Sequence record: MK327947.1
Source of the DNA: Escherichia phage vB_EcoM_G5211
DNA: 64,000 nt
Direction: 5' to 3' (one strand)
A program made the position numbers and the translations under genes. Under the pieces are notes generated by a model. That model had not been told where the DNA came from and made no database searches. It saw only the letters and a program-made list of their open reading frames with translations. Below are positions 18,088-36,949 of this stretch, piece by piece (position 1 is the first letter of the stretch; every line of letters starts with the position of its first letter).

Positions 18088-18116
18088 GGCGGGGATTATC
18101 CCCGCCTTTTTATTTT
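18088..18116 (+). terminator. intrinsic terminator after gene 54 (probably bidirectional)
   Basis: GGCGGGG-attat-CCCCGCC followed by TTTTTATTTT. Confidence 0.6.
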
Positions 18117-18595
18117 GCTAAATCATTGCAATATTTTAGTGCCTTAGTTTGAAATTCTGCGCTGTTAAGTTCTTCATAACGGTCATAATCACCGTTTAAT
18201 GCTGCTTTTCTTGCTTCTTGCTCTATCTGCATGTCAGACATGATAATACAGCGATCCCGCGCTTTCATCTTCTCAAGTTGTATAGACTCTTCTTTCTGCT
18301 TGCGCAATTCTTCTTGACGCTTCTTTTCTTCTTGTGCTTTCTCTTCCCGCGCTTCTTTGATTGCATCCTTGAACATCTGCGTTTGTGGTGCTAAACCAAC
18401 TTTAACTCGATCTACGTCTCGACGTTCCATTTTAGAAATAAAGCATGATTCGATCTGATCATCACTTGCATATGCTGCTTTACATTCACGAAGCAAGAAA
18501 ACCGGATCTGATTTAGCATTCATCATAGCTTCCATGTTGGCACAACCAGTAAGCATGAATGCAGCCGCAAGACCAATCAGTTTAATCATTTTCAT
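18110..18595 (-). CDS. predicted lipoprotein (161 aa)
   Basis: N-terminus MKMIKLIGLAAAFMLTGC has a signal peptide and lipobox; start overlaps the upstream stop (ATGA). Confidence 0.65.
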   Translation of the reverse strand: MKMIKLIGLAAAFMLTGCANMEAMMNAKSDPVFLLRECKAAYASDDQIESCFISKMERRDVDRVKVGLAPQTQMFKDAIKEAREEKAQEEKKRQEELRKQKEESIQLEKMKARDRCIIMSDMQIEQEARKAALNGDYDRYEELNSAEFQTKALKYCNDLAK

Positions 18596-19494: not shown

Positions 19495-21546
19495 TTACAT
19501 TTTAAATTTATCTGGCATTGCGTCTACAGATACCAGATCAGCGATAAGCTGACGTAGAGTTGCCTTATCTGCTTTCTTACGTTCGGTTTTAGCTTCGCTA
19601 ATGAAGCTGGAGAAAGACAGGTCAGAAGCAGGTTTAATAACACCTTCACGGATGAATGCATCACCGTCCGCGATCATCTCGCCAGATTCTTGTAATGCTG
19701 CCAGTTCATTTTTGTTCATAATATGTGCCTCAATGTAATAAGTTTCTTGTGAATCCGTCGATGCCGTAGCACGAGTTACCGTATCAAAGGATAACACAAC
19801 ACCGCGAGGAAGTAAAATCTCGCATTCTTTGTAAGCAAATGCTTTGTTACCTACTGGCAATACAGGGATGTTTTCCGCGCCAGCAATGGAGAAAGCAACA
19901 TTAGCGCCACCTTCACCGCGAGAGCCAGCCATAGAATCAACACCAGCAACGGCACTAGCCACGTTTGCATTCCAGCCGCCAAAAATGTTAGGTGCAAGGG
20001 AAGTGCTCACATAGTTTTTAAAGTAAAACGCTTTTTGCTTACGTGCAGTTTCCCACATTTGCGACCGGAAGTCCATACCACGATACAGAATAGTACCCGG
20101 ATCAAGTTTAACGCCATAGTTGGAGAAGGCATTATCCAGTGCATCGCACATCTTGACCAATTCTTCTGGATCTGCGATGCCTTCAAACTCTTCCAGCTTA
20201 CGGTCGGTTAGGAAGTTGTTCATATTGATGTATGCTGCATCGGCATATTCGCTCAACACAAAACCTTCCGCGCCCGGCAGATCAAGATCAATATCTGCCA
20301 TCATTTCACCCATGTTGCTAGCAATTGCTTCAAACATACCGGAAGCAACATTACGTAGGGCATCGGTTTTAATCTGGGTGATGTGACTACGCAGCATTTC
20401 AGCTTTTACATCTGCTGGCATAGACTGGTCTACTCGATCCATTGCCAGGGCGGTGATCTTGTTTTCGAATACTTCCTCGCTCATGATTTCTTTTAAGCGT
20501 TTGATTGATGCTGCGATAACTTCCGCAGACAATGGATCATATTGATCCTGAACTTTTACCAGTTCGCTTACTGCGTATTTTGCATCGGCTTCGCTTTCAA
20601 AAATAGTACGCATGAAACCATAGCGAGTGATAATATCACTTGTCCAGTCATTCAGAGAACGGGCGGTTGAACGTTCTAAGGCTTGACGATCAATCAGAGT
20701 ATTAAACTGTTTCTTAGGTTCGGCTTCGGTGATATCTTCTTCCGGTTTAAGATTAATTTTTTCTGGATGATTCACATAGTCGCTGTTATAGGTCGCTTGA
20801 GTTTTCAGCATTTCTTCTTTAGTCAAACGAGATTTAGCCGCTACGCGTTGTTCTGCTTCCGCGTTTCGTTCTTCTTCTGACACAAGACTAGCCGCATATG
20901 CCTCATCTTTAGTCAGAGATTCACCAGTAGCCTTAGATACCCAGCGATCACCTAAATCACTTTCTACTTTAGTGAACAAGGATTCATCAAGTTTAATCCC
21001 TTTAATCTTATCAATCGCCATCCCGCGACGCTTGACAACAACTAAAGCGATCTTTTTGCTGGTCATTACTTCCTGCTGGAATACTTCAAACTTCGGTGTA
21101 CGACGCACCAAACGCTCTATAACGCGCTTAACCAGTTCGGTCTTACCTTTCATGCGGGATACGTTAAAACGGAACATAACAGCGTCTAATTGCGCTTTAC
21201 GGGCTGTTTCCATAACCACATCAAAAGCACTTGACATAACTGCAATCGGGTTATCGCCTAGACCATTTTTAAGCTGTACAATACGACCGCTTTTGTTCAT
21301 TTCGCACAGTACAACATGTGCGGTCTTGTCACCCATACGAATGATTTTAGGTGTTTTGTTGGTGAAGTTACAAAGACGGACAATCACATCTTTATCGCGT
21401 GTCTGTACTGCAAAAAGCTGTTTAGGATTCTGCTTAGGCTTTAAGCACTGTACCGGAGCAATACTGCCAAAGTTTTCTTCCTCTTCCGTCAACAGCCATT
21501 TCTCGAAAGATTCAATCATTAGATCGTCGATTTCTAAGTTAAACAT
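19495..21546 (-). CDS. alt: Alt ADP-ribosyltransferase
   Basis: 683 aa (T4 Alt is ~682 aa); C-terminal ART motifs; AGAGGA RBS. Confidence 0.9.
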   Translation of the reverse strand: MFNLEIDDLMIESFEKWLLTEEEENFGSIAPVQCLKPKQNPKQLFAVQTRDKDVIVRLCNFTNKTPKIIRMGDKTAHVVLCEMNKSGRIVQLKNGLGDNPIAVMSSAFDVVMETARKAQLDAVMFRFNVSRMKGKTELVKRVIERLVRRTPKFEVFQQEVMTSKKIALVVVKRRGMAIDKIKGIKLDESLFTKVESDLGDRWVSKATGESLTKDEAYAASLVSEEERNAEAEQRVAAKSRLTKEEMLKTQATYNSDYVNHPEKINLKPEEDITEAEPKKQFNTLIDRQALERSTARSLNDWTSDIITRYGFMRTIFESEADAKYAVSELVKVQDQYDPLSAEVIAASIKRLKEIMSEEVFENKITALAMDRVDQSMPADVKAEMLRSHITQIKTDALRNVASGMFEAIASNMGEMMADIDLDLPGAEGFVLSEYADAAYINMNNFLTDRKLEEFEGIADPEELVKMCDALDNAFSNYGVKLDPGTILYRGMDFRSQMWETARKQKAFYFKNYVSTSLAPNIFGGWNANVASAVAGVDSMAGSRGEGGANVAFSIAGAENIPVLPVGNKAFAYKECEILLPRGVVLSFDTVTRATASTDSQETYYIEAHIMNKNELAALQESGEMIADGDAFIREGVIKPASDLSFSSFISEAKTERKKADKATLRQLIADLVSVDAMPDKFKM

Positions 21547-22145: not shown

Positions 22146-22664
22146 TTAGTTATTTTTTAATTGCTCATCTTGCAATAGGGCAATCACATGCTGGCGATGT
22201 TCTTCCGATTGAGGAACACCGAAAAAGTTTGTTTTGTAGAAATACTCTAATCGGTCTTCTCGTGTGCTCTCTTCCATCATGATCGCGGGTAGTCCGAGAT
22301 TTCGGAAACGTCGCTTTTCTGCTGGCGTAAAATCACTGTAATACAACATAGAATCATCATTACCAGCAATGCTAAACTCATCATTCATGAAGGAGAATAT
22401 TGCGTTTAAACGCTGTTTACCGTCCACGATTTCGATCTCATAGCGAGAGCCATCATCAATCTTAGCCATTGCGATAGCACCAACCGGAAAATCATTAATC
22501 AGGTTTTCGATAAACATACGTTTGTTTTCGGTGTCCCATACCAAAGGACGCTGATAATCTGGGTTCATGTTGATATAGCCATCTTCTAACCATGCATCAT
22601 AAACAGAGATGACAAAGTTTTTAGTATTGGTATAGTAACGGCGTTTAGGCGTTAAACGGTTCAT
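22146..22664 (-). CDS. DUF262 / ParB-like (DGQQR-type) domain protein
   Basis: PDYQRPLVWD ... IVDGKQRLNAI matches the DUF262 N-terminal signature; internal ATG abuts the stop of the upstream ORF. Confidence 0.7.
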   Translation of the reverse strand: MNRLTPKRRYYTNTKNFVISVYDAWLEDGYINMNPDYQRPLVWDTENKRMFIENLINDFPVGAIAMAKIDDGSRYEIEIVDGKQRLNAIFSFMNDEFSIAGNDDSMLYYSDFTPAEKRRFRNLGLPAIMMEESTREDRLEYFYKTNFFGVPQSEEHRQHVIALLQDEQLKNN

Positions 22665-22665
22665 G

Positions 22666-22995
22666 TTATAGTCTCCTGAATGGATCATCACGTAAATCAA
22701 TATCTTTTAAGAACTCATCCCATGAATGGCGGATATTGTTCTTAATTCTCCAGATAAGCGCAGGGATTGAACGCTCTCCCATCTGGAAGTAAGGATCATA
22801 TGATCCGTATGCCCAATATGCTACTACAATTCCACAGTCAGCGCAATAGTATTCTATTTCACTTGCTGGCGACCAAAGTCCATCAATATGATCAGTGATC
22901 TTGCTTTCGATGTTATGACTATGACAATCAGGGCAACGGATGCAATGACCTTGTTTATCGTAATTTGACGTTAGAGAATACTTAAACAATCTCAT
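22666..22995 (-). CDS. zinc-ribbon (CxxC..CxxC) protein
   Basis: CIRCPDC .. CADCG cysteine pairs; start overlaps the stop of the methyltransferase-like gene by 1 nt. Confidence 0.65.
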   Translation of the reverse strand: MRLFKYSLTSNYDKQGHCIRCPDCHSHNIESKITDHIDGLWSPASEIEYYCADCGIVVAYWAYGSYDPYFQMGERSIPALIWRIKNNIRHSWDEFLKDIDLRDDPFRRL

Positions 22996-23711
22996 TATAG
23001 ATCCTTATTGGCTTCAAATACTGCCTTTGCGAATCCTCGCGGGGTAAGTGACCTGATAGTCTTTGTTCTGGTTCCTTTCCCGCCTAGCTTAGAATGCTGT
23101 TTACTGTACCCTTTATTAATCTGCAACGGTTTCTTTTCTGGCATTATAAAGCCTTGTCCGGTCCATAAGCAAGTCTTTTTCGGGTACATATCACGGGCGG
23201 CAATATACTCAGGAAACGTAGGATGCTTATCATCTTCCGGCAAATAACCGCCATATTCCCACGGATGGAACATGTAATCAGGCTTACGCCACATACTAGA
23301 GATAACGCTTACAGGATTCTCTATCATGTAGGGAACTCCTAGCCATTCACCCAAATAAGCGGTTATTTTAGCTGTCCGTACATCATGAACTTGAATCAAT
23401 GGTCCTTGTTCTCGTTTCTTTCGTTCAAAGTGTGCAGCGCCACTAACAGCTAAATTGGTGCACGGTGGGAATGCAAAGATAATATCCGGTTTCCCCCATT
23501 CAAGGTCCATTGCTCTTTCCAGCCAGTTCAAATCAATCCAGGTGTTTACATAAGTAATGTTTGGATGTTCAAATCTGGTATTATACTTTTTGTATGTACC
23601 GTGGTCGGCGTCATCCGCATTAAAGCAGACTACCTTATGACCTGCTTTAGCCCATTCTAGCCCCATTATCCCCGATCCGTCAAAGTTGCAGAATATTAAT
23701 TTTTGTTTCAT
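22995..23711 (-). CDS. SAM-dependent C5-cytosine-methyltransferase-like protein (238 aa)
   Basis: FDGSGIMG (motif I-like), FPPCTNLAVSG (PC motif IV-like), MIENPVS (ENV-like), SLTPRGFAKAV; AGGGTGG RBS. Confidence 0.6.
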   Translation of the reverse strand: MKQKLIFCNFDGSGIMGLEWAKAGHKVVCFNADDADHGTYKKYNTRFEHPNITYVNTWIDLNWLERAMDLEWGKPDIIFAFPPCTNLAVSGAAHFERKKREQGPLIQVHDVRTAKITAYLGEWLGVPYMIENPVSVISSMWRKPDYMFHPWEYGGYLPEDDKHPTFPEYIAARDMYPKKTCLWTGQGFIMPEKKPLQINKGYSKQHSKLGGKGTRTKTIRSLTPRGFAKAVFEANKDL

Positions 23712-27550: not shown

Positions 27551-27718
27551 TTATTTGTTAATTTCTGGTGCGTTGCTTGGATAGTAACCTTCTTTAACAC
27601 CCAGATATTTTGCAACCATTCCGGTGATCTTCTGTGCTACTACGATATCGAATTTCAGGTAGTCTTCACCGTGTTTTGCTACAATGTATGCTTCGCATTC
27701 TGCTTTAGTCTGGAACAT
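27551..27718 (-). CDS. small early protein (55 aa), paralog B of 24285..24452
   Basis: MFQTKAECEAYIVAKHGEDYLKFDIVVAQKITGMVAKYLGVKEGYYPSNAPEINK. Confidence 0.5.
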   Translation of the reverse strand: MFQTKAECEAYIVAKHGEDYLKFDIVVAQKITGMVAKYLGVKEGYYPSNAPEINK

Positions 27719-27782
27719 TTTTGATTCTCCTATATCTCGTTGGTATGTGTGTATTATAGGGGATCTCCCGATCCCCTGTCAA
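27719..27782 (-). promoter_or_regulatory. early promoter plus stem-loop cassette (PeSL-like)
   Basis: TTGACA-18-TATAAT with GGGGATC-tccc-GATCCCC palindrome. Confidence 0.6.
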
Positions 27783-27795
27783 CAACTTTTTTGAA

Positions 27796-28272
27796 TTATT
27801 TTTCTTGATGCTCGCGCTCGTACTTTTCGAAATAAAATTCTACTGGCTGGTCATGAATTGACAGCAAGCCAAAGCGTTTAGCCGCTCGCAATCCCATATT
27901 GCGCTGAATGTACTTCTGGAAGTTCTCGCGTATACACTTACGCCAGTATTCTAAGCCCATACAGCTTTTATAAAGATTGCATTGTACACACGCCGGATTC
28001 ATGTTATCAAGTATATCATGTTCCGGTTTATGCATTCCTACAACCTTATACTTCCACGACCCATCATCATTACGGGCAATTCGTCCATTTTCATCATAGA
28101 CTACCTTTGAGCGTCGCAATACTGGTTTGATATGGTCTGCGTGCCAGCGATCCCCTAGTTCCTCGCCACAATAGGCACAACGCCCACCGTATTTCATTTT
28201 CAGGATCTGGCGTTGCTCTTTCTTTGACAATTTTTTAGGTTTAGGGGCTTTCGCCCCTTCATTATCACACAT
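27796..28272 (-). CDS. HNH endonuclease (free-standing, abutting the DNA ligase gene)
   Basis: CAYCGEEL..WHADHIKP..NMNPACVQCN matches the HNH Cys/His pattern; start overlaps the 3' end of gene 30. Confidence 0.75.
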   Translation of the reverse strand: MCDNEGAKAPKPKKLSKKEQRQILKMKYGGRCAYCGEELGDRWHADHIKPVLRRSKVVYDENGRIARNDDGSWKYKVVGMHKPEHDILDNMNPACVQCNLYKSCMGLEYWRKCIRENFQKYIQRNMGLRAAKRFGLLSIHDQPVEFYFEKYEREHQEK

Positions 28273-29761
28273 CGAATACCTCTTTTACTGTATTTGCCGT
28301 GGTCTTGTCGTAGCGAATACGTTTGATGATTGGGAGAAATAAAGAGAACTCCGGTTCATCTTCTTTACGTGATTTGCTGCGGATATACCCGTTGCATGTC
28401 ATCTCAATGACTTTTCCAATCAGGTTATGACGGTCAGCCCATAACATTTCTCGGTCGAGTTCATTTCGACGATCGAACGGAATTACACGTTCGATACCAT
28501 CATCACCTTTTTCGGTTGTGGTGTCGGTTAATCCCGATCCGGTGTTAGTCATCATTCGTCCGCACGCACTACGGACAGTAAAACCGCCTACCTTATTGGG
28601 GTCTTTACTATGCGGATATACATCAACAATTTCCGCGTCGAAGTCAATAACTTCTTTAAATTTAACCTGATCTTTACTGCGACGATCTTCAAATACACCA
28701 TGTAAATTTTTAAGGATAATACCTTCTAAGCCCATGTTTACATAGCGATGATATACTTCGCGAGCTTCATCGATATTGTTAACTACAGTGTTTTCGATTA
28801 TCTGAACACGAGGATCGTTAAGTTCTTCAACAATCTGTTTTAGTTCTTCGAATCGATCTTTATATTGCTTCGTTGCTTTCTCGTTTCCGTAATACACATC
28901 ACGGTCGATAACATCCCAGACAGTGTAAACAATACATTGGGCTTCTTCTTTTGGAATAGTTCCTTTCAGTGATTTGTTGAGGATACCATTTCCGGTCTGA
29001 CGATCTGCAACAACGGATTCTTTCACTGCTTCCGCTACTGGCGTTAATGGCATTTCATCTTCTTCAAATATCCATGACAGAGTACCATCATAAACGCTCT
29101 CAACGAAGTTCTGCGCTGGTGTTTGCGAAAGGGTAGGCATATATACCAATTCGCCATCTAGAACAATTCCACGGCCTCGTAGACGCTCTAAAACCACAAA
29201 CAAATCATCAAGCCCTTGATAGGTATTACCTGAACGGGTATAGATTGCTAATGTTTCCCCGTCAATATCAGCCATCCCACGAGCGCCATCGCTTTTAAGT
29301 TGTGCATACGCCGGATATTTGATATTGGCAATGGTCTTATCAGAACATGACGATGCAAGGTGGCACGGCTGCTGAGGAATCAGTTTCTTCCATACCTTGT
29401 TTGCGGTGGTAGCGGAACAACCGCATTCTAGGTCTCGATTCAGGACCATCATTGCAACTTTAGCATCGTCTTCCGACAAGCAAGTCAGAGTATCGGTAAC
29501 TAGCTGTAATGCTGCATTACCAGTTATTTGACGCGTGGCAAGTTTATTTTTAAAGACCTGTAATGCGCCAGATAAAGACAATACAGATGAATAACGCGAC
29601 GGTTTATCGTATTTCTTTACGCCAAACGTAACCTGTTTGCAATATGCCAGATAAAAGCATTCTTTCAGCGTTTCATTGCTTGCAGATTCTTTCAGGATCT
29701 TTTCTTTCAGCGATGTTTTGTCTGTTGCTGCAAGCTGATTAATGATATTAAGAATTGACAT
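28265..29761 (-). CDS. 30: ATP-dependent DNA ligase gp30
   Basis: From the internal ATG (MSILNIINQ..); KSDGAR adenylation motif region and overall parallel to T4 ligase; the track ORF starts at GTG 29767. Confidence 0.9.
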   Translation of the reverse strand: MSILNIINQLAATDKTSLKEKILKESASNETLKECFYLAYCKQVTFGVKKYDKPSRYSSVLSLSGALQVFKNKLATRQITGNAALQLVTDTLTCLSEDDAKVAMMVLNRDLECGCSATTANKVWKKLIPQQPCHLASSCSDKTIANIKYPAYAQLKSDGARGMADIDGETLAIYTRSGNTYQGLDDLFVVLERLRGRGIVLDGELVYMPTLSQTPAQNFVESVYDGTLSWIFEEDEMPLTPVAEAVKESVVADRQTGNGILNKSLKGTIPKEEAQCIVYTVWDVIDRDVYYGNEKATKQYKDRFEELKQIVEELNDPRVQIIENTVVNNIDEAREVYHRYVNMGLEGIILKNLHGVFEDRRSKDQVKFKEVIDFDAEIVDVYPHSKDPNKVGGFTVRSACGRMMTNTGSGLTDTTTEKGDDGIERVIPFDRRNELDREMLWADRHNLIGKVIEMTCNGYIRSKSRKEDEPEFSLFLPIIKRIRYDKTTANTVKEVFDV

Positions 29762-30227
29762 TTTCACCTCGTTTTGTTAAACGTTCACGAATATCATTGA
29801 GGATACTACAAAATTCCGATTCAGTCAATATAGTCTTTAACGGATCAGTTCCACCTATGCTATGACGTAATTTCTTATTTCCGGTAGCGAGTAATGCTTT
29901 ACAAAATTCTGGGTTATTCCGTGCCATCGTAACAAATGCCAGATGTACCAGTCTGTAATAATGCTCACTCATTCGATGAATAGGGCGACCCTGAAAATAT
30001 AACATGTGATTCTCAATCTTTTCAGTTCTTCCGGTTCTTTTTGCTTTGCCACCGTGCATCAAAAAGATTTCTCTTTGTCTCTGAGGGTTCTTAAATCTTA
30101 GCCCCTGTAAAAATCCTTCTGTGCTGTTAATATCGCAACCAAATAGACGGAATGGTCTTTTATTGAAATTGCTCAATTCACCCGATGGATAAGGTCCACC
30201 CGCATAGATATCAATTTCAGAAGTCAT
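29748..30227 (-). CDS. NADAR/YbiA-like (DUF1768) protein
   Basis: PSGELSNFNKRPF..EGFLQGLRF and ALLATGNKKL resemble the NADAR family signature. Confidence 0.6.
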   Translation of the reverse strand: MTSEIDIYAGGPYPSGELSNFNKRPFRLFGCDINSTEGFLQGLRFKNPQRQREIFLMHGGKAKRTGRTEKIENHMLYFQGRPIHRMSEHYYRLVHLAFVTMARNNPEFCKALLATGNKKLRHSIGGTDPLKTILTESEFCSILNDIRERLTKRGENVNS

Positions 30228-30381
30228 TGAAACTAATCTCGCTAATCAGAGAGAACGGATCATAATCGTCATTAGGAATATCGATAGTAATCGAATGAGG
30301 ATTTACCCATACACCAAACTGGCCTTCTTCGGTGAATACTTCGGTATGGATTTCGTGGATGTTTACATTCATAGTTTTCAT
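30217..30381 (-). CDS. small hypothetical protein (55 aa from internal ATG)
   Basis: ATG with AAGGAA RBS; the track ORF starts at an upstream TTG. Confidence 0.45.
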   Translation of the reverse strand: MKTMNVNIHEIHTEVFTEEGQFGVWVNPHSITIDIPNDDYDPFSLISEISFNDF

Positions 30382-30420
30382 AATAAATTCCTTAATAATC
30401 AATAACTTACAAAATCATAT

Positions 30421-30451
30421 AGCCAAAATATAGGCGGGATTATTTCCCGCC
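30421..30451 (-). terminator. hairpin GGCGGGA..TCCCGCC with U-rich tail downstream of gene 31
   Basis: Inverted repeat immediately after the gp31 stop. Confidence 0.4.
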
Positions 30452-31662: not shown

Positions 31663-31866
31663 TTAACCGTATACGCGAAAGTATTCTACTGATCCGTCGC
31701 TATACTGTTTTACATTGAATGTATTCACACCATGATTATTTCTCATGATGACATATACACTGCGACGTTCATCGCTAAACGGCATAACTGGCGCTGGTTC
31801 AATATCAACACTAAAACCACGTTTAGCAAGTGCTTCGCCTAATTGCTTGAGTTTATCGGTAAACAT
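31663..31866 (-). CDS. small hypothetical protein (67 aa)
   Basis: ATG overlaps the pseT stop region. Confidence 0.5.
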   Translation of the reverse strand: MFTDKLKQLGEALAKRGFSVDIEPAPVMPFSDERRSVYVIMRNNHGVNTFNVKQYSDGSVEYFRVYG

Positions 31867-32744
31867 TAAAATTCTCCGTAGTTAACCTGAAAACATTCTA
31901 CACCAATTGAGCGGTACATGTCAACCACTTGATCACGGTCATCTACCGCCAAAACAACATGATAACGCGGTGCAATTTCAGAGAAGAAGATCTCTTTCTT
32001 CACTTCATGATCAGGACGACGATCATTAGTTTCACGTTGAAAGTGATCACTAGGTTCAATACCCTGTTCACGCAACCATTGCAGAGTATCTTCTTCGCAA
32101 ACATCCTCACGCCCTGAGCATGTGATGATACGATAGCCATTATCACGATACAGTTTAAGCATTTCGACCACTTGCGGACGCGGTTTATCTTCTTTGACCT
32201 TTGTCCAGTCAAACGGATGACGACCGCCCTTATCCGCTAATGTCCCATCAATATCAAAGATCACTGCCTTTGGCAGCATGGTATTCGGTTTGTATACTTC
32301 TTGACCCATATATTCCTGCATCAGATAAAATTGGTTGCGCAAATGAGAAAGTGGAATTGCTTTCTCGCCGCGATAGAAATTACGTTTCTTTAGTGTCTCA
32401 AATGATTCATTGAACACTTGTTCAGTATACACCGCGTTAAATTCTTTTGCAAGTTCTTTGTAGAATACACGATGTTTTTCTTTCAGGTTGGTATCGGAGA
32501 TAATGATACTCAATCCGCGTGATAGAGTCTCACGAGCAATCATTCTCTGAATAGACTCTACCAGCTTTTCTTTTTCCTTAGTATACTTGTATTTCAAATG
32601 TGAGTCAACACCAAACAACATAAGACGAAGATCATCACGATTCACATTACGATAATTACTAAACCGTTTACACGTTTCCATAGCCCATGTAGTTTTACCG
32701 GACCCAGAACAACCAACGGTTAAAATCACTTCACATTTCGGCAT
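31866..32744 (-). CDS. pseT: polynucleotide 5'-kinase/3'-phosphatase
   Basis: From the internal ATG with AAGGAGAA RBS; P-loop GCSGSGKTT and HAD motif VIFDIDGTLAD. Confidence 0.85.
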   Translation of the reverse strand: MPKCEVILTVGCSGSGKTTWAMETCKRFSNYRNVNRDDLRLMLFGVDSHLKYKYTKEKEKLVESIQRMIARETLSRGLSIIISDTNLKEKHRVFYKELAKEFNAVYTEQVFNESFETLKKRNFYRGEKAIPLSHLRNQFYLMQEYMGQEVYKPNTMLPKAVIFDIDGTLADKGGRHPFDWTKVKEDKPRPQVVEMLKLYRDNGYRIITCSGREDVCEEDTLQWLREQGIEPSDHFQRETNDRRPDHEVKKEIFFSEIAPRYHVVLAVDDRDQVVDMYRSIGVECFQVNYGEF

Positions 32745-33196
32745 TATTTCTCCTTCGGTTTGCACCGTTCCTCATTAAGTTCTTTTCGATAATAACACAT
32801 GATCAACTTACTTTCAAGTGTATATCTCTTAATATCCGCAAGCCAGACTCTGAATTTTTGGGAGTCCTCCCACGACATAGAAACTCTAGGTTTACCGTCT
32901 ATTGTATCCACTTTCAGGTCAATGTCAACTTTTTCTATTGGTGCTGGTAGTTGAGGATGTAATTTCGGTTCCTGTGAATACTGGTCCATTGTACACGAAG
33001 AAAGAGCAAATACAATAGGTACAGCGAAGACATGGATTATGGCGGTCTGAAAATTCTTATGTGCTTTCTTAAACATCCAGTGTATCACGAAAATTGAAAA
33101 CACCATCAGGATAATAATGCTTGCACCTATCCCCAGATAATCAACCAGATTAAAATTGCTTATCTGCTCTTGCGTAGGCAATATTTCTATGCTCAT
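32744..33196 (-). CDS. membrane protein with internal lipoprotein signal; candidate o-spanin (pseT.2-like)
   Basis: AAGGAGG RBS at 33196; internal MFKKAHKNFQTAIIHVFAVPIVFALSSC has a lipobox; start overlaps the upstream stop (ATGA). Confidence 0.45.
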   Translation of the reverse strand: MSIEILPTQEQISNFNLVDYLGIGASIIILMVFSIFVIHWMFKKAHKNFQTAIIHVFAVPIVFALSSCTMDQYSQEPKLHPQLPAPIEKVDIDLKVDTIDGKPRVSMSWEDSQKFRVWLADIKRYTLESKLIMCYYRKELNEERCKPKEK

Positions 33197-36472: not shown

Positions 36473-36949
36473 TTAATCATGACCGTGATTTGCAATATCC
36501 GCTCGCGTCTTATCTTTGTGATTTCCTACGTCAAAGACACGATAACCATTTTCACGCAAAACTTTAATCACTTCTGGGTTATCCTCAAAGACTCCGACAA
36601 CTTCATCTTTATCAAAGGATTTAATTACCTCTAATTTGATGTGATAGTCTTTACGGGAATCGGTACGGCCTCTCATAAAGATTTTATCAAAACACACCCC
36701 GTTAGAAATTAACCAATCAATTGTTTCCATGTAAGCATGTGAACTTCGTCCGGTGAGGATGTAAATCAAATGCCCGTTGTCGGAAAGAGCATTAATAACA
36801 CGAATTACATCGTAAATGGGGGAATCTCCCCCACATGCCTTGTTATATTCGATCCATGACTCGACTTTATCAAGATTTTCGGTTGGCATCTTTGCTAGTC
36901 GATGCGTTGGATCTGTGATCGTAAAATCTAAATCGACAAAATATATCAT
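36473..36949 (-). CDS. HAD-superfamily phosphatase (nucleotidase-like)
   Basis: FVDLDFTIT (DxDxT), ILTGRS and FEDN motifs; start overlaps the nrdB stop (ATGA). Confidence 0.65.
   Translation of the reverse strand: MIYFVDLDFTITDPTHRLAKMPTENLDKVESWIEYNKACGGDSPIYDVIRVINALSDNGHLIYILTGRSSHAYMETIDWLISNGVCFDKIFMRGRTDSRKDYHIKLEVIKSFDKDEVVGVFEDNPEVIKVLRENGYRVFDVGNHKDKTRADIANHGHD

Follow-up and report, generated by a model that had tools for sequence, protein, structure and literature searches.

We analysed a 64,000-nucleotide stretch of DNA from Escherichia phage vB_EcoM_G5211 (MK327947.1), hereafter the window, around a small gene on its minus strand. The initial annotation had placed an open reading frame at 29748-30227 next to a DNA ligase gene, and both statements proved exact: the frame runs on the minus strand from an ATG and encodes 159 aa, and it adjoins and overlaps the ligase gene. 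The gene and its two neighbours are listed below.

29748-30227, minus strand: adfN, the gene 30.3 orthologue; ATG start, 159 aa, a single-domain phage NADAR protein and predicted guanine-ADP-ribose DNA glycohydrolase.
30217-30402, minus strand: ORF 31.-1, a small frame 5' of adfN; PHROG 15277; the RB49 annotation gives 54 aa, which corresponds to 30217-30381.
28265-29767, minus strand: gene 30, ATP-dependent DNA ligase, the syntenic neighbour; PF01068, PHROG 114 and RB49 annotation.

The gene order in this part of the window was cd-31.1-31-31.-1-30.3-30. The stop of 31.-1 and the start of adfN overlapped by 11 nt, which suggests that the two genes are translationally coupled within one transcript; at the other end, the start of the ligase gene overlapped the 3' end of adfN, which lies immediately upstream. 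The same gene order was found in a 69%-identical metagenomic relative (locus L008). Approximately 59 genomes of Krischvirus (RB49-like) coliphages showed 97-98% DNA identity across the adfN region, and the window protein was 100% identical in amino-acid sequence to the deposited RB49 gp30.3 (AJ550428.1). The krischvirus records that we checked label adfN as 'hypothetical protein', and the RB49 fragment record lists gp30.3 with the function unknown.

In T4, where the order is cd-31.2-31.1-31-rIII-30.9...30.4-30.3-30.2-30.1-30-alt, gene 30.3 also lies between 31 and 30, and genes 30.1 and 30.2 separate it from the ligase gene. The T4 30.1 and 30.2 proteins gave no tblastn match in one complete krischvirus genome. 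Since these two genes are absent from RB49-like phages, the adjacency of adfN and the ligase gene is best read as the T4 order minus 30.1 and 30.2 rather than as functional clustering. Functional coupling between adfN and the ligase, such as repair after de-ADP-ribosylation, was considered and rejected as unsupported, because two unrelated T4 genes sit between 30.3 and 30.

A scan for promoters and terminators near adfN revealed nothing above shuffled expectation, except for a hairpin between gene 31 and 31.-1. This GC-rich hairpin is followed by a T-run and lies on the minus strand at 30433-30451 (GGCGGGAAATAATCCCGCC TATATTTTGG); it could represent a terminator or else resemble the shuffled promoter/stem-loop motifs of T4-like phages (PMC4122927). 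Directly downstream of the ligase gene, and overlapping it, we found an HNH endonuclease gene (27796-28272, minus strand; PF01844, PHROG 2118), which probably encodes a homing endonuclease. A 4-kb query around adfN aligned to relatives in two pieces spanning approximately 5.5 kb. At approximately 27700-27800, the window was without approximately 1.5 kb of small hypothetical ORFs that other krischviruses carry, as seen against phage kvi (L003 20088-21547). From these alignments, the site downstream of the ligase and HNH genes in krischviruses appears to be a hyperplastic region.

The window protein matched the Pfam family PF08010 (Phage_30_3) with 132.5 bits against a cutoff of 36 (E=1.2e-38, 137 of 138 profile positions) and PHROG 652 with an E-value of 2.5e-45. 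The initial annotation had called the protein NADAR/YbiA-like from two motifs, both of which are present (ELSNF at residues 17-21 and EGFLQGLRF at residues 37-45), and had proposed a search with the NADAR profile PF08719 as a check. Taken literally, that search was negative, with 15.5 bits against the curated cutoff of 35.1 (E=0.021). The profile was missed because the phage clade has a Pfam family of its own, PF08010, and the relation to PF08719 is accordingly one of superfamily kinship rather than of membership. An exhaustive HMM search placed 1,665 clusters at 50% identity in the gp30.3 family. PF08010 was matched by all 150 representatives of the best 150 of these clusters, and PF08719 was matched independently by 32 of the 150 (E<=0.01; best E=1.2e-6). 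The census was made on these representatives because a viral-contig scan with the single protein yielded too few loci, namely two near-identical ones.

The fold search and profile-profile alignment were needed to reach NADAR, as sequence-level searches of the PDB were insufficient. The single-protein search of the PDB gave no NADAR match, and its match to DltA (E=3.8e-4, residues 45-151) was judged spurious; the family profile reached E. coli YbiA weakly (E=0.12). Upon alignment with hhalign, the family and YbiA were matched with 90.7% probability over 125 columns (E=1.3e-6). The AlphaFold2 model of the window protein had a mean pLDDT of 94.2 and a pTM of 0.89, and the fold search with this model returned only NADAR structures, the best structural match being YbiA. 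The model consists of a bare NADAR (YbiA-like) core without extensions, and its core fold begins at residue 4. Thus, the NADAR/YbiA-like description held at the superfamily level, given the fold, the hhalign comparison and the 32 PF08719 matches, but did not extend to PF08719 itself. The NCBIfam entry 'NADAR family anti-phage protein' was also rejected as the family of this protein, as its score was sub-threshold (13.8 bits against 240). The domains to which family members are fused (DUF6939, ASCH, NT5C and others) carried no coherent extra functional signal. On this evidence, it is practically certain that the window protein is a NADAR protein of the gp30.3/AdfN family.

The gp30.3 proteins form the 'phage NADAR' clade, whose defining feature is a His at the position of the Glu of YbiA and the Asp of DarG1 (PMC11125620, PMC12945103). 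T4 gp30.3, also a PF08010 protein, showed 38% identity to the window protein over its full length (E=2e-30). The T4 protein has been renamed AdfN (anti-DarT factor NADAR) and is necessary and sufficient for the escape of T-even phages from DarTG1; the purified protein strips ADP-ribose from DarT1-modified DNA, and the mutations E36A and K43A abolish its function (PMC11257639). In vitro, T4 AdfN hydrolysed guanine-linked but not thymine-linked ADP-ribose (PMC11125620); G-ADPr in RNA was a further substrate of the T4 NADAR (PMC11833690), but cytidine-ADPr was not (PMC12945103). Across the family, the reported NADAR activities concern base-linked ADPr (guanine in DNA or RNA, and cytosine in some clades), and NADARs are inactive on thymine-ADPr and phosphate-end ADPr (PMC11125620, PMC11833690, PMC12945103). 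In a transposon screen, adfN was dispensable on plain K-12 and became essential when the host carried DarTG1 (bioRxiv 10.1101/2025.11.20.689424).

From these precedents, we consider it probable that the main function of the window gene is that of an AdfN-type guanine-ADPr DNA eraser that counters host DarTG1. The structural proximity to YbiA, together with the RefSeq name N-glycosidase YbiA, could instead point to a metabolite N-glycosidase whose substrates are intermediates of the riboflavin pathway or further small molecules rather than nucleic acids. This reading is extremely improbable: the YbiA catalytic Glu is replaced by the His of the phage clade, T4 AdfN has been shown to act on DNA and its phenotype is specific to the defence (PMC11257639), and adfN lies among DNA-metabolism genes.

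To relate the eraser function to the window protein, we compared its active-site residues and C-terminus with those of characterised NADAR proteins. The features concerned are given below.

30117-30119, minus strand: codon GAA of E37, aligned with the catalytic Glu of T4 AdfN (E36), the E. coli C7 NADAR (E88) and YbiA.
30096-30098, minus strand: codon AGA of R44, a naturally occurring Arg that aligns with the Lys coordinating the phosphate in other NADARs (K43 in T4, K95 in C7).
29862-29864, minus strand: codon CAT of H122, the last-strand His, aligned by hhalign with the Glu of 'VEHT' in YbiA.
29760-29822, minus strand: C-terminal alpha-helix (residues 136-155), intact in the model.

Glu was found at the E37 position in 162 of 170 family rows and His at the H122 position in 158 of 170. 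The alignment with T4 gp30.3 reached the T4 C-terminus; the RB69 allele, which is 15 residues shorter at the C-terminus, is non-functional, and this correlates with DarTG1 sensitivity (PMC11257639). Conservation across the family reaches 80% or more at 37 positions; the window protein carries the conserved residue at 33 of them, and T4 AdfN, with its demonstrated activity, deviates at six. The R44 position differs from this pattern, as it is occupied by Lys in 159 of the 170 rows and by Arg in only 6. Arg is likewise basic, and the residue at this site matters for function rather than for the assignment of homology. Nevertheless, all krischvirus copies that were examined have Arg, and R44 was retained in RB49, in phage kvi, in two IMG/VR contigs and in the 69%-identical metagenomic protein with the same synteny (P0002). 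Comparison with four krischvirus orthologues gave synonymous to nonsynonymous codon differences of 4:0, 2:0, 10:0 and 16:2 (32:2 in total), which indicates that adfN is under clear purifying selection in these phages.

Arg at the catalytic Lys was also seen in one matched stretch of three metagenomic family members unrelated to the krischviruses (P0031, P0058 and P0144). Two of these, P0031 and P0058 (290 and 292 aa), contained two matched stretches, the N-terminal one with an E-x6-K motif, and may be tandem NADAR duplications.

The consequences of the Lys-to-Arg change can be gauged from the E. coli C7 NADAR, in which K95R kept guanine-ADPr hydrolysis in vitro and lost the rescue of cells from DarT1 (PMC11543638). 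Because the C7 mutant hydrolyses in vitro without rescuing in vivo, R44 would be compatible with catalysis, although it could alter efficiency or specificity. By the same comparison, the krischvirus gene might be an attenuated allele that hydrolyses in vitro and gives no useful protection in vivo, so that krischviruses use other means or stay sensitive to DarTG1; the C7 mutant gave no rescue from DarT1 toxicity, krischviruses do not encode AdfA (61.2), and our literature search gave no report on krischviruses and DarTG1. We consider this very unlikely in view of the strong purifying selection, the retention of R44 down to 69% identity, and the intact state of the C-terminal helix and of all other catalytic and core positions.

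The same rarity of R44, combined with its fixation under purifying selection, could also be taken as a sign of a broader or different nucleic-acid eraser, whose main substrate would be G-ADPr RNA or the marks of other guanine-specific host ARTs (YarT-like, pierisin/ScARP-like) rather than those of DarT1. The substitutions K44R, W78F and M36T would then represent retargeting. The removal of G-ADPr from RNA by the T4 NADAR in vitro (PMC11833690) and the pairing of another ART toxin with a NADAR in YarT-YbiA (PMC11125620) are consistent with such a shift. Overall, however, it is unlikely, as the orthology and synteny with T4 adfN argue for the T4 substrate, the clade His, which is associated with specificity for guanine alone, is kept (PMC12945103), and no data indicate another writer in the E. 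coli hosts of krischviruses.

The initial annotation had further noted that two ADP-ribosyltransferases (ARTs) are encoded in the window, and both were identified, each above the PF03496 cutoff.

19495-21546, minus strand: Alt homologue, 683 aa; PF03496 with 37.3 bits against a cutoff of 23.4; named RNA polymerase ADP-ribosylase in phage kvi.
18592-19416, minus strand: Alt-like ART paralogue, 274 aa, adjacent to alt; PF03496 with 59.3 bits, PHROG 15144 and 802.

The two proteins shared 37% identity over 109 residues of the catalytic region, and the paralogue lacks the long N-terminal region of Alt. A 161-aa ORF (18110-18595, minus strand; PHROG 16112) overlaps the Alt paralogue gene and comes after it, and the two may form a two-gene module beside alt.

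Alt-type enzymes modify protein arginines. From the presence of these ARTs, it had been suggested that the NADAR protein completes a writer-plus-processor repertoire; in such a scheme, it would reverse or process the protein-arginine ADP-ribosylation or RNAylation made by Alt, its paralogue or a ModB-like ART. The gene content is compatible with the suggestion, comprising the two ARTs of the window, a third, ModB-like ART in phage kvi, and two predicted ADPr hydrolases (the NADAR and a Tk.4/AdfM-like macrodomain protein). Several observations nevertheless make an eraser of the phage's own marks highly improbable. In particular, the activities reported for NADARs are on base-linked ADPr and do not include thymine-ADPr or phosphate-end ADPr (PMC11125620, PMC11833690, PMC12945103); T4 AdfN strips the marks of host DarT1, and the adfN mutant of T4 has a phenotype only with DarTG1, the gene being dispensable without it (PMC11257639; bioRxiv 10.1101/2025.11.20.689424). 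Additionally, none of the 150 family representatives was fused to an ART, and adfN and alt lie approximately 8 kb apart with approximately 20 ORFs between them. By analogy with T4, the writer relevant to adfN would be host DarT1, which makes this a host-phage conflict rather than a phage-internal write/erase cycle.

The eraser repertoire of the krischviruses was further compared in the complete genome of phage kvi, which encodes AdfN, a Tk.4/AdfM-like macrodomain protein and the ModB-like ART; AdfA (61.2) was absent from this genome.

L012 27618-28073 (phage kvi, outside the window): Tk.4/AdfM homologue, 44% identity to T4 Tk.4/AdfM (E=6e-39).

The AdfM macrodomain has recently been reported as an anti-DarTG2 factor. 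Since AdfN and an AdfM homologue are encoded and AdfA is lacking, krischviruses appear to carry one eraser per DarT type. Our literature search found no report of Krischvirus or RB49 with DarTG and no experiment on an RB49-type AdfN.

The DNA of these phages also differs from that of T4. RB49 DNA contains neither hmC nor glucosyl-hmC (PMC4041780), and Krischvirus genomes are reported to be without hmC synthase and glucosyltransferases (PMC13390438); in line with this, we found no gp42, a-gt or b-gt homologues in the complete genome of phage kvi. Unexpected modified cytosines have been described in the krischvirus SAP and not in the 99.96%-identical TB34 (PMC13390438). The window encodes a 238-aa protein (22995-23711, minus strand) that matched PHROG 757, 'DNA methyltransferase' (E=3.4e-91), is named 'Dcm' in phage kvi and had no Pfam match at E<0.01; it could bear on the cytosine modification found in SAP and not in TB34 (PMC13390438). 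Two further observations concern other genes of the window. A 184-aa protein (22146-22700, minus strand) contained only GmrSD_N (DUF262), the domain that forms the N-terminal half of proteins resembling type IV restriction enzymes, and its match to PHROG 1583 (417 positions) was confined to the first half of that profile; it is an odd phage cargo and could be a decoy or an inhibitor. A second PNKP-type HAD phosphatase, stand-alone and 158 aa in length (36473-36949, minus strand), was present beside a full-length PseT (polynucleotide kinase/phosphatase, 299 aa; 31866-32765, minus strand).

T4 AdfN is no general antitoxin and gives little help to phages with unmodified DNA, and a preference for hydroxymethylcytosine DNA has been proposed (PMC11257639). 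Since R44 and W78F occur in a canonical-cytosine phage, the RB49-type AdfN might be a shifted variant (Lys to Arg, W78F) tuned to unmodified DNA, which might counteract DarT1 whatever the DNA, also in uninfected cells or on behalf of unrelated phages. We put this forward tentatively, as a possible but rather doubtful extension of the AdfN assignment.

We return to the eraser that counters DarTG1, for which the following course is proposed. The gene would be expressed from a minus-strand block with genes 31, 31.-1 and 30, as suggested by the overlapping frames and the RB49 annotation, and the product is predicted with high confidence to fold as the bare NADAR core. By alignment with 8bau and from published mutagenesis, ADP-ribose would be bound with R44 at the pyrophosphate and with E37 and H122 around the distal ribose. 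The protein would then hydrolyse the bond between guanine N2 and ribose in phage DNA, and the DarT1 replication block would be lifted so that the phage replicates in DarTG1 E. coli; both steps have been demonstrated for T4 and are presumed to apply here. Homology, synteny, fold, retention of the catalytic residues and purifying selection were all observed for the window gene. For its substrate, chemistry and counter-defence role, we infer from the T4 experiments that an RB49-type protein, with Arg and with canonical-cytosine DNA, would behave in the same manner. Counting against this are the Lys-to-Arg change at the phosphate site, which in C7 abolished DarT1 rescue in vivo (PMC11543638), the poor performance of T4 AdfN outside Tevenvirinae with its proposed hmC preference (PMC11257639) when hmC is absent from RB49 DNA (PMC4041780), and the sub-cutoff score with the NADAR Pfam profile itself.

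The gene, its family and its NADAR nature are already in the literature, and the exact protein is in GenBank as RB49 gp30.3 (AJ550428.1). The annotation should read adfN (anti-DarT factor, NADAR-type DNA ADP-ribosylglycohydrolase). The co-occurrence of ARTs and an ADP-ribose hydrolase in a phage does not by itself amount to an own write/erase cycle, as the eraser would be aimed at a host toxin. The krischvirus Lys-to-Arg change and unmodified-cytosine DNA would allow the determinants of AdfN substrate specificity to be tested cheaply by comparison, and the shifted variant, if true, would be a natural test of the hydroxymethylcytosine origin of T4 AdfN specificity.

Upon comparison with known systems, the window protein was most like T4 AdfN, with which it shares the bare NADAR core without an N-terminal extension, the catalytic Glu, the clade His and the C-terminal helix. 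Some differences were present. The essential Lys of T4 AdfN (K43) corresponds to Arg in the window protein, and the near-invariant Trp at position 78 to Phe; the gene is without the internal ORF 30.3' of T4 (no minus-strand ORF of at least 40 aa lies inside it) and abuts the ligase gene directly, 30.1 and 30.2 being absent. Additionally, the DNA of this phage type normally has canonical cytosine, whereas T4 DNA has glucosyl-hmC.

The DarG1 NADARs (E. coli C7 and Geobacter lovleyi, PDB 8bat) carry an N-terminal beta-beta-alpha extension that is absent from the window protein, and their catalytic Asp corresponds to His. The DarG1 gene is linked to the DarT toxin gene, whereas adfN in the window is flanked by 31.-1 and the ligase gene, with no DarT, in the manner of an 'orphan antitoxin'. 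The third group consists of YbiA (PDB 2b3w), the Phytophthora nicotianae NADAR (PDB 8bau) and other PF08719 proteins, for which the window protein falls below the cutoff; the last-strand Glu of YbiA is His in the window protein, and the PF08719-type acidic residue (Glu in the YbiA type, Asp in the DarG1/BC4488 type) is absent there. The YbiA and 8bau types are encoded by a chromosomal LexA-regulated gene or a eukaryotic gene, in contrast to the predicted counter-defence gene of a lytic phage. Finally, the NADARs of phages Bas32 and Bas60 and the T4 protein Tk.4/AdfM are, like AdfN, phage-borne ADP-ribose erasers that neutralise DarT toxins. The Bas32 and Bas60 proteins belong to other NADAR clades and are active also in uninfected cells (PMC11257639), while T4 AdfM, whose krischvirus homologue is encoded outside the window, is a macrodomain acting against the thymine-ADPr made by DarT2.
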